Shown here in pieces: positions 31,998 through 35,392 of a stretch of DNA of 64,000 nt. Origin of the DNA: Candidatus Curtissbacteria bacterium (GTDB taxonomy: Bacteria; Patescibacteriota; Microgenomatia; Curtissbacterales; GWA2-41-24); assembly GCA_016183325.1 (NCBI GenBank), contig JACPEV010000011.1, positions 36,782 to 100,781 on the forward strand. Reading direction: 5' to 3'. The notes under the pieces are model-generated. The model was not told the origin of the DNA. It ran no database searches and saw only the letters and a list, made by a program, of their open reading frames with translations. Every line of letters starts with the position of its first letter. The first letter of the stretch is position 1. Position numbers and translations under genes: made by a program.

Positions 31998-32006
31998 CTT
32001 GACTTA

Positions 32007-32270
32007 GCCGGTTTTTATAACGTCGCTGTTTTCTTTAACCTCTTTGTCTACCTTGAGACCAAATTCATCGCCTGATTTGGCAATATCAATATTTGCGCGT
32101 TCTATCTGCATTGAGGAAACTTCCTGAGTAAATTCCGTTCCGTCTCTTGTTACAAGTTTCACCTTATCACCAACTTTCAAATCACCTTTTGAAAGCTTAA
32201 CAACGGCAACGCCGATTTTATCATAGTAGTGGGAAATTTTCCCGATTTTTTTATCTGCTATTTTTGATCA
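32007..32270 (-). other. Start-less 87-codon ORF encoding a translation-factor-type β-barrel (IF2-C2/EF-Tu domain 2-like); possible gene remnant or non-ATG-initiated small protein
   Basis: ...IGVAVVKLSKGDLKVGDKVKLVTRDGTEFTQEVSSMQIERANIDIAKSGDEFGLKVDKEVKENSDVIKTG*. It opens directly after a TGA with no in-frame ATG before codon 53; in-frame TTG and GTG candidates exist. Confidence 0.25.
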
Positions 32271-32374: not shown

Positions 32375-32578
32375 TTAATTGCTTTCTGGCTTTTCTTCAA
32401 GTAGCTTGTTGATTTTGGCTTGGGCACTTTTTAATTTTTCTTGGCATTTTTTATGAAGTTCGATGCCTTCGGCGAGAAGTTCAACAGCCTCTTCTAAATC
32501 AAGGTCTTGACTTTCCAGTTTTTCGACAATTTCTTCAAGCCTTTCAATCGCCTTTTTGAAGTTTAAGTCCTTGGCCAT
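32375..32578 (-). CDS. xseB: Exodeoxyribonuclease VII small subunit
   Basis: 67-aa helical protein. FKKAIERLEEIVEKLESQDLDLEEAVELLAEG. Confidence 0.8.
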   Translation of the reverse strand: MAKDLNFKKAIERLEEIVEKLESQDLDLEEAVELLAEGIELHKKCQEKLKSAQAKINKLLEEKPESN

Positions 32579-33866
32579 ATGTTTGACTAGTTGGCTGATC
32601 CTCCTTAGTCAGGATTTTTGATGTTACTTTCCCTCTGTGAAATTGTACTTTAAGTTTGGAGCCGATGGCAACCTGGGAAGAGTTTTTGATGACACGATTA
32701 CTTTCATCAGTTGTAATACTATATCCACGAGCTAGCGTGTTTAATGGCGAAAGAATGATCAGCTTTTCGTTAAGGCTGTTAAGTAAACTGGATTTCTCCT
32801 GCAAAAAATATTTGCTGGTGTTTTTGATGGAAACGAGGTATGTTTCAAGTTTTTGAGAATTTTTGACAATAATTCGATCTTCTGCCGTTTTGAGGCTTTG
32901 TTTTAGGAAATCGAGATGGCGCGGGAACTGTTGGAATTTTTCTTTATGGTAGGCGAGCCTGTGGAATGTTAAATCAAGTGTTTGAGAACTTGAAGAGATC
33001 AGTCTTGCGATCGACTTTTCGAGAAGATCTCGGTAGGCTGTCAATTTTTCTTCTAAGGATAAAAAATCTGCAGTTATTATTTTGGCAGCATCTGTCGGGG
33101 TTGAAGCGGCAATATCGGCCACAAGCTGGGCAATGGTGACATCTTTTTCGTGGCCGACACCGACGACTATCGTGGTTTTGGCGTGGAAAATACTGTGTGC
33201 AACTTTCTCATCGTTGAAAGCAGCAAGGTCTTCAAGAGAACCACCGCCTCTAACAAGAACAATGGCGTCGAAACCGCCTTTCTCCGCTTTCTGAATAGCT
33301 TTGACAATCTGATTGACTGCGGAAGATCCCTGAACCATAACATCAAACAAAGTGACATTTATGACGGGAAAGCGATCAACGCTATGCCGTTTGAAATCAA
33401 ACCAGGCATCGGCAATTTTGCTGGTGATGACGGCAATTTTTGTGGGGTATGATGGTAAAGGCTTTTTGCGAGACTTATCAAAATAGCCTTTTTGCTCGAG
33501 TTTCTTTTTGAGTTTTTCAAGTTCGGCCAAAAGAATCCCTTCGCCAAACTGTTCAAGCTGGTGAATGTACATTTGAAATGTGCCGTCCCTTTCATAAAGA
33601 GAAAGATTGCCAAGAGCTAGGACTTTGATACCGTCGGCCATTGCAAAATCGACAGATTGAAAAATCGAAGGTTCCAAAATACAGGGGAGTTTATAGCCAG
33701 TGTTGGGATCTTTTAGGTCGAAGTAAAGATAACGATAATGATGGTTTAATCCTTTGAAAGAGGAAATTTCGCCCTCGACCCAGAATGACATGTTCTCGAG
33801 CGTTTGGCGGGTAAGCGCATTAACCTCTGAAACGCTATATACGGACTTACCGTCAATTGTTTTCAT
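32544..33866 (-). CDS. xseA: Exodeoxyribonuclease VII large subunit
   Basis: N-terminal OB-fold (SVSEVNALTRQTLENMSFWVEGEISSF) and catalytic core VLVRGGGSLEDL. Confidence 0.85.
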   Translation of the reverse strand: MKTIDGKSVYSVSEVNALTRQTLENMSFWVEGEISSFKGLNHHYRYLYFDLKDPNTGYKLPCILEPSIFQSVDFAMADGIKVLALGNLSLYERDGTFQMYIHQLEQFGEGILLAELEKLKKKLEQKGYFDKSRKKPLPSYPTKIAVITSKIADAWFDFKRHSVDRFPVINVTLFDVMVQGSSAVNQIVKAIQKAEKGGFDAIVLVRGGGSLEDLAAFNDEKVAHSIFHAKTTIVVGVGHEKDVTIAQLVADIAASTPTDAAKIITADFLSLEEKLTAYRDLLEKSIARLISSSSQTLDLTFHRLAYHKEKFQQFPRHLDFLKQSLKTAEDRIIVKNSQKLETYLVSIKNTSKYFLQEKSSLLNSLNEKLIILSPLNTLARGYSITTDESNRVIKNSSQVAIGSKLKVQFHRGKVTSKILTKEDQPTSQTYGQGLKLQKGD

Positions 33867-33930
33867 TTTTCAAAGTATAGCATTTTTGACCTGACACATA
33901 TTGATATTTTAAAGTACTAGATTTGGTCTG

Positions 33931-34026
33931 TTGACATGAAATCTTTCATATATTATATTGTCCCATGCTTATCGCAAGATAGGCAATTTGAAAGGGCTTC
34001 TCGCAAGAGAGGCCTTTTCTTTTTTG
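33931..34026 (+). ncRNA. Candidate small RNA module 1: TTGACA-N17-TATATT promoter, GNRA-tetraloop hairpin (CTTATCgcaaGATAGG), intrinsic terminator (GGGCTTCTCgcaaGAGAGGCC plus T-run)
   Basis: Complete promoter-to-terminator unit of ~60 nt with no ORF, on the strand opposite to the flanking genes. Paralogous to 34586-34678. Confidence 0.45.
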
Positions 34027-34027
34027 A

Positions 34028-34077
34028 TGGTAGAAGGTAGAAGATAGAAGATGGAATGTGAGGATAGAAGGTAGACA
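34028..34077 (+). repeat. Iteron-like array of (G/A)(G/A)TAGAA heptamers (GATGGTAGAA GGTAGAA GATAGAA GATGGAA ... GATAGAA GGTAGAC)
   Basis: Tandem motif array immediately 3' of the four-helix-bundle gene. An inverted counterpart lies at 34488-34552. Confidence 0.6.
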
Positions 34078-34485
34078 TTAGAAAGATTTCCAGTTCCTGC
34101 GAAGATTTGTTAATTTACCACCTAGCATTTGATATCTTTTAAGTAAAGCCTCGCAAAAATCTTTTTCCCAATAGTTTAAATCTCTTGCTGTATCTATGTG
34201 CACTTCCATTTCATTTGCAGACCCAAGTAAACTGTCAAGGTGTTTTTTAAATTCCTTCTCGAATCTTCTCTTCGCCCATCCTTCAGCAATGTTAGAGGGG
34301 CAAGATTTTGAAGCTCTTCTCATTTGCGATGCCAAATCGTTTCTCTCGTAAACAGGAAATTTCTCAACTGCTTTATGGACAATCAGCATCAGCTGGTAAG
34401 CCTCTTGGTATACTTCGAGGTCGCGAAAACTCTTGATCATTTTGCTTTTAAGGAAAGGGTTGCACTTTCTATCGGTACATTTCAA
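34078..34485 (-). CDS. Four-helix-bundle protein (TIGR02436 / PF05635 '23S rRNA-intervening-sequence protein' family, Avd-like fold)
   Basis: FRDLEVYQEAYQLMLIVHKAVEKFP...ERNDLASQMRRASKSCPSNIAEGWAKR matches the family signature. Confidence 0.8.
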   Translation of the reverse strand: MKCTDRKCNPFLKSKMIKSFRDLEVYQEAYQLMLIVHKAVEKFPVYERNDLASQMRRASKSCPSNIAEGWAKRRFEKEFKKHLDSLLGSANEMEVHIDTARDLNYWEKDFCEALLKRYQMLGGKLTNLRRNWKSF

Positions 34486-34487
34486 AT

Positions 34488-34552
34488 CTATACTCTATCA
34501 TCAAAATCTACCGTCTACCCTCAATCATCTATCATCTAATTATGATTGATCT
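34488..34552 (+). repeat. Inverted copy of the GGTAGA/GATAGA iteron array (reads TCTACC/TCTATC on the plus strand)
   Basis: atctaccgtctaccctcaatcatctatcatcta. With 34028-34077 it forms inverted terminal arrays bracketing the four-helix-bundle gene. Confidence 0.55.
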
Positions 34553-34585
34553 AAATTGATATTCTTAGGTACTAGATTTGGTCTG

Positions 34586-34678
34586 TTGACAAGGGTCGTT
34601 TACTAGTATATATTTGTCGATGCTTATCGCAAGATAGGCAATGAAAGGGCTTAGGGGGTAACTCTTAAGCCTTTTCTT
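34586..34678 (+). ncRNA. Candidate small RNA module 2: TTGACA-N17-TATATT promoter, identical hairpin ATGCTTATCGCAAGATAGGCAAT, terminator GGGCTTAGggggtaactCTTAAGCC plus T-run
   Basis: Paralog of 33931-34026. Lies in the upstream (5') region of the four-helix-bundle gene but on the opposite strand. Confidence 0.45.
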
Positions 34679-34681
34679 CAT

Positions 34682-35392
34682 TTAGAAATACCTCAGCGTA
34701 CTTGACATGTCCCCTAGAATTTTTTCATAATTTGCGACGTTGTCTTTGGCATCCAGCTGTTGGTAATAAAGAACGAGAGGTGTTTGAGAATCGAAAATTA
34801 AAAAACTTAATTTTTCAAATCCTCGTGGAATCGTGCCGGCTCCCGTGGCCACAGATCTAATTTTTTTAACCGATCTACCATCTATAACGATGCTTACACT
34901 TGAAAGAATACTTTGAAAGTCGTTGGGATTATCATAAAATTTAACCGTTGAGAGCCAGTCTTCTATTTTTACTGGTTCAATTCTGACGGGTACAATATTG
35001 TTTTGGGTTTTAGAATTGACTACAAATGAAAACGGCGCAAAAAAAGTGCATTTTTGTTCCTCTAGGTCATATGTTGTAAACCAGTCCTTGGGATAAGCTA
35101 CTTCGAAACCGTAAAGGGTGTTTGAACAAAGCTTGACAAATGAGGAGATAACAGTTCCAGACTGAACGTCCGTGCCGGGAAGCGGCTGCTCAATTGTATT
35201 GTCAGCAGCCTTATTTTCAATTTTAGATCTTAGAATTTGCCCAAAATCCGAATTCTTTCCAAGAATGAAAAATATGAGGCCATAGACAACGAGGAAAATT
35301 AAAATTGATGTTACTTTAAGGTATTTCTTAAGATTTAAAAGCGTGAGATTTATAAGCGTCAACTTACTCTCCCTTAATTCAGGATAAAGCAA
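34682..35392 (-). CDS. Hypothetical membrane-anchored protein
   Basis: 236 aa with an N-terminal TM helix. No domain recognised. Confidence 0.45.
   Translation of the reverse strand: MLYPELRESKLTLINLTLLNLKKYLKVTSILIFLVVYGLIFFILGKNSDFGQILRSKIENKAADNTIEQPLPGTDVQSGTVISSFVKLCSNTLYGFEVAYPKDWFTTYDLEEQKCTFFAPFSFVVNSKTQNNIVPVRIEPVKIEDWLSTVKFYDNPNDFQSILSSVSIVIDGRSVKKIRSVATGAGTIPRGFEKLSFLIFDSQTPLVLYYQQLDAKDNVANYEKILGDMSSTLRYF

Follow-up and report, generated by a model that had tools for sequence, protein, structure and literature searches.

Paralogous genes for a predicted ~57-60 nt structured RNA at a fixed chromosomal locus of Curtissbacteria

Two plus-strand units in the window, as we call the whole 64-kb stretch of DNA analysed here, are shown by sequence comparison to be independent paralogous genes for a predicted non-coding RNA of ~57-60 nt, the family of which is specific to Curtissbacteria (Microgenomates, CPR). 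Taken jointly with this gene identity, a trans-acting and probably protein-binding structural RNA is the explanation towards which we lean, if only slightly. The RNA combines a consensus promoter, a predicted transcript of ~57 nt, clean covariation and near-invariance beside proteins that are ~40% identical, and such constraint is usual only for RNAs working with core machinery. Since CPR/Patescibacteria have tiny genomes and are unculturable, comparative evidence is the only handle on a gene of this kind.

Each unit consists of a near-consensus sigma-70 promoter, a 7-bp GCAA-capped hairpin at the predicted transcript start, an A-rich linker of 4-6 nt, and a GNRA-capped intrinsic terminator. 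The parts of the two units are as follows (positions are those of the window):

33900-33930, plus strand: shared upstream element (ATTGATATT..GTACTAGATTTGGTCTG), unit 1 copy, from the repeat search and lineage comparison
33931-33959, plus strand: unit 1 promoter, TTGACA, 17-nt spacer, TATATT; 11/12 against consensus
33967-33984, plus strand: unit 1 hairpin 1, GCUUAUC GCAA GAUAGGC, with a U3-G16 wobble
33990-34025, plus strand: unit 1 intrinsic terminator, canonical (hairpin 33990-34019), GGGCUUCUC GCAA GAGAGGCC, then UUUUCUUUUUU
34555-34585, plus strand: shared upstream element, unit 2 copy, from the repeat search
34586-34614, plus strand: unit 2 promoter, TTGACA, 17-nt spacer, TATATT; 11/12 against consensus
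34622-34639, plus strand: unit 2 hairpin 1, same sequence as unit 1 hairpin 1
34643-34679, plus strand: unit 2 terminator, "type B" (hairpin 34643-34676), GGGCUUAGGGG GUAA CUCUUAAGCC and a U-tail

The original prediction had described TTGACA-17-TATATT promoters, a GCAA hairpin and a terminator in both plus-strand units, and all of them lie where it had placed them. Its description of the terminator loops as GCAA-type was right for unit 1 and wrong for unit 2, in which the loop is GUAA. The units are covered by a direct repeat of 88 nt whose two copies (33900-33987 and 34555-34642) are 80% identical, and they have the upstream element in common. This element, ATTGATATT..GTACTAGATTTGGTCTG, is limited to the lineage of the window and L040 (related loci are given by L numbers), its position being taken in other lineages by ATTTTGGGGGG or TTTTRTCCCAG. 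Counting both strands, the 64-kb window has only six perfect TTGACA-N16-18-TANNNT sites, among them the two unit promoters. The hairpin 23-mer ATGCTTATCGCAAGATAGGCAAT occurs twice in the window, as does GTACTAGATTTGGTCTGTTGACA, versus 0 expected for either. The unit 1 RNA is predicted to start at 33967 or just before and to span 33967-34025. A two-hairpin fold was obtained for both units (-31.1 and -32.3 kcal/mol, z -5.9 and -7.9, for units 1 and 2, respectively), hairpin 1 and the terminator helix being 83% alike, an internal repeat. In cmsearch, unit 1 (33967-34019) scored 83.4 bits and unit 2 54.7 bits. The type-B terminator of unit 2, which is also found in L040, L030, L041, and L103, is probably bidirectional.

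The units lie among minus-strand genes:

32544-33866, minus strand: xseA (exonuclease VII large subunit; PF02601, PF13742), divergent neighbour of unit 1
33874-33882, minus strand: putative extended -10 TGCTATACT of xseA, 7 nt before the xseA ATG
34078-34485, minus strand: four-helix-bundle gene (23S rRNA intervening-sequence protein; PF05635, TIGR02436), between the units
34682-35392, minus strand: p236, encoding a membrane-anchored, clade-specific protein of 236 aa, convergent neighbour of the sRNA locus

In an 18-mer search of genome contigs, the whole unit was common to 21 of the 35 matches, and species-representative MAGs had one matching locus each by the exact 18-mer. By tblastn of Curtissbacteria-type MAG contigs, the synteny holA-xseB-xseA / sRNA / p236 / p354 was present in 20/20 loci, with the sRNA positioned between divergent xseA and convergent p236 in these 20 contigs. 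All 19 genome loci that reach into p236 have it together with the RNA; the contig of L029 ends before p236. Because the seed search demanded exact hairpin 1, the genome-contig set is biased towards invariance, and the sole unbiased sample is a set of metagenome loci picked by the p236 protein only. Of the 65 such loci that continue for 90 nt or more past p236, 64 have the RNA, again between xseA and p236. Sense matches of at least 32 bits in cmsearch were all in the xseA-p236 intergenic region (102/102, with 101 at 48 bits or more), and only two covariance-model matches were found in the 64-kb window. The original prediction had named a genome search for more copies as a test that could tell against it; not many came to light, the exact 18-mer search and the covariance-model search of the loci and window giving 1-2 copies per locus at one locus per genome. 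A dispersed repeat (REP or MITE-like) was rejected on the same counts, i.e., two matches in the 64-kb window and one exact-18-mer locus per species-representative MAG. The sRNA locus can serve as a marker for Curtissbacteria.

Across relatives, the 53-nt RNA core is identical or differs by a few bases, while amino acid identity to the window's proteins is 36-60% for xseA and 34-62% for p236. A promoter of the form TTGAC[A/T/G], 17-nt spacer, TATAxx was present in 70/70 distinct single-hairpin copies, and the distance from promoter to hairpin base G1 was 5-7 nt in all 70. For p236 there was no Pfam match; its homologues number only 144 among 5.8 billion proteins and, among the matches listed, the source names were all Curtissbacteria, Microgenomates or "uncultured bacterium". 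As there are only 144 members, and the best 120 of the 144 are all close (E below 1e-75), p236 gave no outgroups to fetch. A median of ~12 nt separates the sRNA 3' end from the last codon of p236, and the unit 2 terminator of the window ends 2-3 nt short of the p236 stop codon.

The locus is an insertion hotspot, and the RNA is kept in canonical form when either neighbour has been displaced. It is canonical where xseA is not adjacent (L006, L026, and L038), UPF0047 being the divergent neighbour in L026 and L038, while L006 has a DUF3467 gene in this place and an insert of 1.8 kb. It is likewise canonical where p236 is not adjacent (L050, L031, and L072), lying at 155-1360 nt from p236 in L057, L078, L072, and L050. 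From these arrangements, the RNA appears to be independent of either neighbour gene.

The covariation alignment, in which many sequences are close relatives, had 98.5% of cells paired and double changes in 8/15 pairs. Helix 1 was 100% paired with 5/7 pairs covarying, and the terminator helix 99.5% paired with 3/6 pairs covarying. The observed values were reached by 0/500 shuffles, and slid controls were 31-53% paired. Furthermore, 30 of the 31 distinct sequences adopted the two-hairpin fold, the median MFE frequency being 0.93. The conserved U-G wobbles become A-C mismatches if read on the opposite strand, so that folding is favoured for the plus-strand RNA only. Between the helices, the linker leaves ~4-6 nt unpaired and holds the most variable positions (AACUU, AAUUU, AACUC, AAACU, and AU), and the GAAA after it pairs with the U-tract. 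Structure at the RNA level is, by all signs in the alignment, what selection keeps. Promoter, hairpin, and terminator are kept, with covariation, across ~80 related loci, which upholds the candidate sRNAs of the original prediction.

Several other identities were considered for the units. In both window units, an ATG 6 nt past the -10 opens a 5-codon frame (MLIAR). A leaderless mini-ORF was rejected, since relatives have GT, TT, CT or AA where the window has the ATG; with the frame unconserved, the earlier statement that the units contain no ORF stands. A coding role was also rejected, as substitutions follow the stem pattern and not codons. The whole window gave no match in Rfam 15, including SRP RNA, 6S, and ctRNA, at gathering thresholds, and relaxed searches (E <=10 for the region and E <=0.1 for five variant loci) returned sub-threshold, terminator-driven matches only. 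The best of these in cmscan were BTnc231, GibS, HrrF, and ctRNA_p42d (17-28 bits versus gathering scores of 50-115), with a top score of 27-28 bits versus a gathering score of 80 for BTnc231. Their likeness to the units is only an A/T-rich 5' part and a GC stem followed by a U-run; the alignments cover the terminator only and skip the models' internal helices, and these matches were attributed to chance. No tRNA or tmRNA was found at the locus. TIGR-Tas guide arrays were rejected, as nothing at the locus fits their units of 36 nt, their box C/D-like motifs, their variable spacers or the Tas gene that lies beside them. A phage origin was discarded because the one viral-contig match shares no flanking sequence and was put down to chance. 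An attenuator or riboswitch leader was rejected, given that practically all loci have a convergent gene downstream and that the two-hairpin fold dominates the ensemble; riboswitch toggling was rejected because the alternative pairing between hairpin 1 and terminator, possible in the canonical sequence, is not kept in variants. A search of the literature on small RNAs of CPR, Curtissbacteria or Patescibacteria found nothing relevant.

Copies of the RNA vary in the number of hairpins. L060 has four hairpins and a terminator, L049 three and a terminator, and L031, L050, L057, and L078 have two hairpins, those of the variant copies being capped by GNRA. Across copies the loops are GCAA, GUAA or GAAA, some terminator loops vary, and the diverged second copy in L072 has a UUCG loop in place of GNRA. 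In view of this UUCG loop and the varying terminator loops, selection in some copies may be for hairpin stability and not loop identity. The hairpin appears, from these copies, to be a repeatable module, and the natural series of one to four hairpins allows asking which features matter. Paired copies without inserts are found in tandem in L024/L074, L027/L089, and L043, and L030, L041, and L103 have a type A and a type B unit ~150 nt apart without the PF05635 gene. Most genomes have a single copy, without insert.

The sRNA family occupies one fixed chromosomal position, often as two tandem paralogues, of which one remains canonical and its partner has a diverged terminator or additional GNRA hairpins. 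In the explanation that we favour, the RNA would be constitutive and abundant, as far as expression can be predicted, and would act in trans as a structural RNA with the GCAA-capped helix as its functional module. The helices would most probably bind a conserved protein, as decoy, sponge or RNP scaffold; the terminator helix would provide a second site of a related kind, and variant copies would have 2-4 sites. The terminator would probably also end the convergent p236 mRNA. We further put forward, as a speculative reading of low probability, a ~57-nt housekeeping-grade stable CPR RNA whose GCAA helices would be the RNA subunit of, or a decoy for, a conserved protein, helix number (1 to at least 4) expanding and contracting with canonical and variant genes side by side. 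If true, few RNAs constrained like a tRNA would be smaller, and Patescibacteria would have one of their first defined functional sRNAs. The Curtissbacteria RNA, being easy to synthesise, can also be used as bait for a protein that binds it in this uncultivated phylum.

The constant co-occurrence of p236 with the RNA, in the 19 genome loci that reach it and in nearly every p236-selected metagenome locus, would also fit a cis element of the p236 operon. Here the unit would be chiefly a bidirectional terminator, and its strong convergent promoter would tune 3'-end formation or stability of the p236-p354-rhomboid mRNA, through a 3'-overlapping antisense RNA or polymerase collisions. The short gap to the last p236 codon and the U-tail near the stop point the same way, as do the A-rich linker and U-tail around the stem, as in bidirectional terminators, and the restriction of both p236 and the RNA to the clade. 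We nevertheless consider this rather unlikely. Structure, and not sequence, is what such an element would constrain, whereas hairpin 1 and the terminator hardly vary at all, and hairpin 1, lying beyond a minimal terminator overlap, is still the most conserved part. Moreover, the RNA stays canonical in the four loci that hold it 155 nt or more from p236, p236 is not adjacent to unit 1 of the window or to the L018 copy on the xseA side, and the U-G wobbles favour the fold of the plus-strand RNA only. A classical trans base-pairing sRNA, with the linker or loops as seed, would have the typical layout seen here (5' hairpin, single-stranded linker, terminator and U-tail), but seems quite improbable when the few unpaired nucleotides are those that vary most and the GAAA past the linker pairs with the U-tract; the extra hairpins of L060 and L049 would be senseless for a seed-based RNA.

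Two suggestions made in the original prediction lost ground in the comparison. One was that the units are cis-antisense regulators, each acting on the 5' leader of the minus-strand gene adjacent to it, i.e., xseA for unit 1 and the four-helix-bundle gene for unit 2. Both units are indeed opposite in strand to, and upstream of, these genes, and back-to-back promoters could interfere. However, ~99 nt lie between the xseA ATG and the predicted start of the unit 1 RNA upstream of it, with transcription directed away from xseA, and the conserved TGCTATACT implies little or no leader: if this extended -10 is used, xseA would be leaderless or nearly so. In relatives, a AGTATAGCA-like sequence is conserved ahead of the promoter of the sRNA. 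In addition, the RNA is unchanged beside UPF0047 or the DUF3467 gene, and nearly all relatives have it with no PF05635 gene at the locus, such a gene being found only in the window and L040 among ~90 loci. We regard this regulation as very improbable. The other suggestion was that the units are processed ends of an IVS-like cassette, which we widened to ends of a mobile element or att-like recombination sites, the repeats being made by or used for cassette insertion. It draws on the insertion hotspot, on the copies flanking the PF05635 gene in the window and L040, and on those in L018 flanking genes for a response regulator, a periplasmic binding protein, and a histidine kinase. Against it, both paralogues occur without cassette in L030, L041, and L103, tandem pairs and the single copies of most genomes are likewise free of inserts, and the insert of L050 lies outside the pair. 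The copies on either side of the inserts differ in their terminators and are paralogues that diverged long ago, not fresh duplications, every copy has a full promoter, and the flanks examined contain no recombinase gene. This, too, is a highly doubtful account of the units.

Among known systems, CsrB, RsmY, and RsmZ resemble the Curtissbacteria RNA in being small RNAs with their own promoter and intrinsic terminator, a likeness that would extend to abundance if ours is as abundant as we suppose, and in having a repeated hairpin module that varies in number between homologues, with one to four modules here besides the terminator helix. They differ in that the Curtissbacteria loops are GCAA, GUAA or GAAA and not GGA, that no CsrA-like partner is known and no Rfam match was found for the Curtissbacteria RNA, and that its basic form is one module and a terminator. 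The resemblance points by analogy to a possible working mode and not to membership. Convergent 3'-overlapping sRNA/mRNA pairs are similar in that the terminator abuts the p236 stop and is flanked by an A-tract and a U-tract, whereas the Curtissbacteria RNA is invariant in sequence, has an extra 5' hairpin, and persists away from p236. Promoter-proximal protein-loading hairpins, such as the boxB-type GNRA-like hairpins of lambdoid nut sites, share with it a short GNRA-capped hairpin at the 5' end, ahead of a terminator. Unlike these, the Curtissbacteria RNA has no same-strand downstream gene to antiterminate into and no conserved boxA-like element.

The cassette between the two units has complementary arms around the four-helix-bundle gene:

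34022-34085, no strand: cassette left arm, purine-rich repeats TGATGGTAGAAGGTAGAAGATAGAA in two copies, complementary to the right arm
34486-34545, no strand: cassette right arm, TCTATACTCTATCATCAAA-type repeats

The four-helix-bundle protein matched PF05635 at 9.5e-26 (90.5 bits, cut-off 33.8) and TIGR02436 at 2.6e-25 (88.8 bits, cut-off 24). The true start of the gene is likely the ATG at 34440, giving 120 aa, and it was called as 120 aa on Logan contig L001. The arm-to-arm duplex reached -38.9 kcal/mol (z -3.7), a value attained by 0/500 shuffles; the MFE structure of the whole cassette includes an end-to-end stem, with an unremarkable total energy (z -0.24). Because L030, L041, and L103 have both units without the PF05635 gene, the cassette is secondary, an IVS-like element that inserted between two pre-existing paralogues in the lineage of the window and L040. 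The L040 protein has 93% amino acid identity to the window's, and identity between the two loci is 81-92% across the cassette, ~76% in xseA, and 60-70% in p236. This difference is too modest for a recent transfer of the block from unit 1 through the cassette to unit 2, which was rejected, and the insertion is read as ancestral to the two species.

PF05635 ORFs have been reported within rRNA insertions of CPR bacteria (PMC11270868). Like such intervening sequences, the window cassette has a PF05635 gene inside complementary arms that could form a long stem. Unlike them, it lies outside an rRNA gene, between two sRNA genes and on the opposite strand, and the repeated sRNA units are not part of it. 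The empty and filled sites, set side by side, document the insertion of a PF05635 IVS-like cassette at a place other than an rRNA gene.

The two copies of the candidate small RNA (unit 1 and unit 2) lie in the following arrangement:

33864-33882, minus strand: xseA ATG and, 7 nt ahead of it, a conserved TGCTATACT, a putative extended -10
33931-34026, plus strand: unit 1
34022-34085: repeat arm
34078-34485, minus strand: PF05635/TIGR02436 four-helix-bundle protein gene, between the units
34486-34545: repeat arm, complementary to the first
34586-34678, plus strand: unit 2
34682-35392, minus strand: p236, a clade-specific gene convergent with the small RNA

The units belong to an 88-nt direct repeat (33900-33987 versus 34555-34642, 80% identity), and each has a TTGACA/TATATT promoter with a 17-nt spacer and a terminator-like hairpin that leads into a T-run. 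The 23-mer ATGCTTATCGCAAGATAGGCAAT, identical in both units, and the upstream 23-mer GTACTAGATTTGGTCTGTTGACA, also common to both, were each matched twice in the window, with 0 matches expected. Counting both strands, only six perfect TTGACA-N16-18-TANNNT sites were present in the 64 kb, two of them being the unit promoters. Both predicted RNAs gave two-hairpin folds (z of -5.9 and -7.9). Unit 1 has the canonical form (type A), and the terminator of unit 2 is of "type B" (GGCUUAGGGG-GUAA-CUCUUAAGCC), a form also found in L040, L030, L041, and L103, contigs of relatives. Repeat, motif, and folding analyses thus agreed with the sequence features as originally described.

The 18-nt hairpin was scanned across one genome per species (596 Gb), giving 35 loci. 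Fourteen had nothing in common beyond the 18-mer, and chance matches of about that number are expected in 596 Gb; the other 21 matched over the whole unit, from promoter through hairpin, linker, and terminator to U-run, and came mostly from Candidatus Curtissbacteria or unclassified Patescibacteria MAGs. All 20 loci tested for synteny had holA-xseB-xseA on one strand and the small RNA on the opposite strand, followed by p236-p354-rhomboid. Since these MAGs had been chosen by exact hairpin match, we also took a second sample that ignored the RNA, of metagenome contigs picked solely for a p236 homologue. Of the 65 loci that extend 90 nt or more past p236, 64 carry the small RNA, and the 65th contig ends short of the RNA position seen in its sister contig. 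Searching 578 kb with a covariance model built from 31 distinct sequences produced 102 hits on the sense strand, every one in the xseA-p236 intergenic region; within the window the model matched units 1 and 2 only. Five contigs labelled "uncultured Gammaproteobacteria" (L006, L009, L025, L029, and L033) and one labelled "Saccharimonadales" (L018) had full Curtissbacteria-type synteny and the small RNA; all six are probably mislabelled or mis-binned.

Across relatives, identity to the window proteins was 36 to 60% for xseA and 34 to 62% for p236, and the 53-nt RNA core was identical or changed at few positions. Changes in hairpin 1 were two-sided (for example, GCUUGCC/GGUGAGC, GCUUACA/UGUAGGC, GUUUGUC/GACGAAC, GUCUGUC/GACAGGC, and GCUCGCA/UGCGGGC). 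When sequences were aligned with MAFFT, with no fitting to structure, 98.5% of cells were paired, with 100% in helix 1 and double changes in 5 of its 7 pairs; none of 500 shuffles reached the observed values, and sliding the partners lowered pairing to 31 to 53%. Conserved U-G wobbles identify the plus-strand RNA, and neither the antisense strand nor a DNA palindrome, as the folding species. All 70 of 70 single-hairpin copies kept the promoter, its spacer always 17 nt long, and hairpin 1 starts 5 to 7 nt after the -10, placing it at the extreme 5' end of the predicted transcript. The ATG within the window's units was not conserved in relatives. Conservation of promoter, hairpin, and terminator, with paired changes, supports the candidate sRNA assignment, and judging from sequence comparison the units very probably represent a single-locus family of small RNA genes, independently promoted and terminated and constrained in structure.

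A second tandem copy was common (10/64 metagenome loci and several MAGs). Usually one copy was canonical and the other had a different terminator or added hairpins; the order of the two differed between lineages, which suggests repeated duplication. In variant genes the GNRA-capped helix was multiplied to 2 to 4 copies. Expanded RNAs, with 2 to 4 or more tandem hairpins of 7 to 10 bp ahead of the usual linker and terminator, were found at:

L031:3482-3558, plus strand
L049:3690-3800, minus strand
L050:5038-5114, minus strand
L057:1216-1290, minus strand
L060:770-900, minus strand
L072:3700-3900, minus strand
L078:4103-4176, minus strand

Nearly all their hairpins were capped by GCAA or GUAA, and they usually adjoin a canonical single-hairpin copy. 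One hairpin of the diverged L072 copy had a UUCG loop.

The original prediction had the units antisense to the 5' leaders of xseA and the four-helix-bundle gene. Unit 1 points away from xseA, and its predicted start is some 99 nt distant from that gene's ATG; the position of TGCTATACT would leave little or no leader, so that xseA appears leaderless or nearly so. The RNA was also unchanged where another gene is the divergent neighbor, and the PF05635 gene was missing from nearly all homologous loci; neither antisense role is supported. A AGTATAGCA box was conserved beside the sRNA promoter in relatives, whatever the divergent neighbor gene.

Because neither a terminator nor a cis-antisense role explains invariance at the sequence level, we infer that the RNA would act in trans as a structural RNA, with protein binding the most likely route, a mechanism we hold tentatively and at somewhat less than even odds. 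This reading is favored by hairpin 1 and the terminator helix being versions of one sequence (83% alike), by the multiplication of the GNRA-capped helix, by the mere 4 to 6 variable unpaired nucleotides, which leave no base-pairing seed, and by the RNA remaining canonical when parted from either neighbor. The main rival, a role in cis at the 3' end of p236, would fit the perfect co-occurrence of the RNA with p236 and the placing of its terminator right against the stop codon of that gene, at a median of about 12 nt, and we consider it unlikely. Under either model, the terminator is probably bidirectional. In its putative mode of action the RNA is most like the multi-hairpin, protein-sequestering Csr/Rsm-type sRNAs, although their defining GGA-loop feature is absent here. 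The RNA matched nothing in Rfam 15 at any threshold tried, and the literature searched yielded nothing about small RNAs in CPR bacteria. The RNA is best placed among the bacterial small non-coding RNAs, as a new family. Its structure is simple, its comparative support is unusually strong for so tiny an RNA, and CPR riboregulation seems unexplored in that literature.

The suggestion that the units are the ends of an intervening-sequence-like cassette was refuted by empty sites: L030, L041, and L103 carry the same type A and type B pair at a spacing of about 150 nt and lack an intervening PF05635 gene. Besides the window, only its closest relative, L040, has the cassette (PF05635 proteins 93% identical), which indicates that the paralogous units predate its insertion; it would simply have landed between two RNA genes. 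The cassette, an ORF enclosed by complementary arms, resembles an rRNA intervening sequence, and CPR bacteria are reported to carry PF05635 ORFs within rRNA insertions (PMC11270868). The start of the window's gene is ambiguous (34440-34485, minus strand): the longest ORF, from TTG 34485, has 135 aa, family members start MIKSFRDL (ATG 34440, 120 aa), and gene calls made on identical Logan contigs were 120 and 103 aa long. In some relatives, further PF05635 genes lie away from the sRNA locus, about 2.2 to 2.8 kb upstream of p236 (L058:428-775, L069:558-818, and L109:235-489), so the cassette is scattered in these genomes. Across the compared loci, the xseA-sRNA-p236 intergenic region is a general insertion hotspot, with these other inserts:

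L006:3400-5200: DUF3467 and other small ORFs
L018:2640-6660: response regulator, periplasmic binding protein, and histidine kinase, lying between two sRNA copies
L026:5541-6035 and L038:1570-2059: UPF0047
L031:3560-4050 and L050:3680-5030: treble-clef zinc-finger gene
L057:872-1030 and the equivalent position in L078: ORF-less long palindrome

The palindrome, which separates the p236 stop codon from the terminator of the sRNA, is very stable; folding of the 158 nt that include it gave about -75 kcal/mol, a second small hairpin contributing. The arms, of low-complexity purine/pyrimidine sequence, are like those enclosing the PF05635 gene of the window, and the palindrome may be an "empty" intervening-sequence-like element.

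The p236 family is very small (144 among 5.8 billion proteins), and all source names among the matches listed (P0001-P0120) were Curtissbacteria, Microgenomates, or "uncultured bacterium." Two cysteines and a YPKDWFTTY motif were invariant or nearly so in the homologues, and one member is named a "PsbP C-terminal domain" protein in UniRef. Between holA and xseB, a 58-aa ORF (32004-32180, minus strand), with a gap of matching size in relatives, had a sub-threshold likeness to EF-Tu domain 2/beta-barrel domains (23.9 bits versus a cut-off of 30.3).
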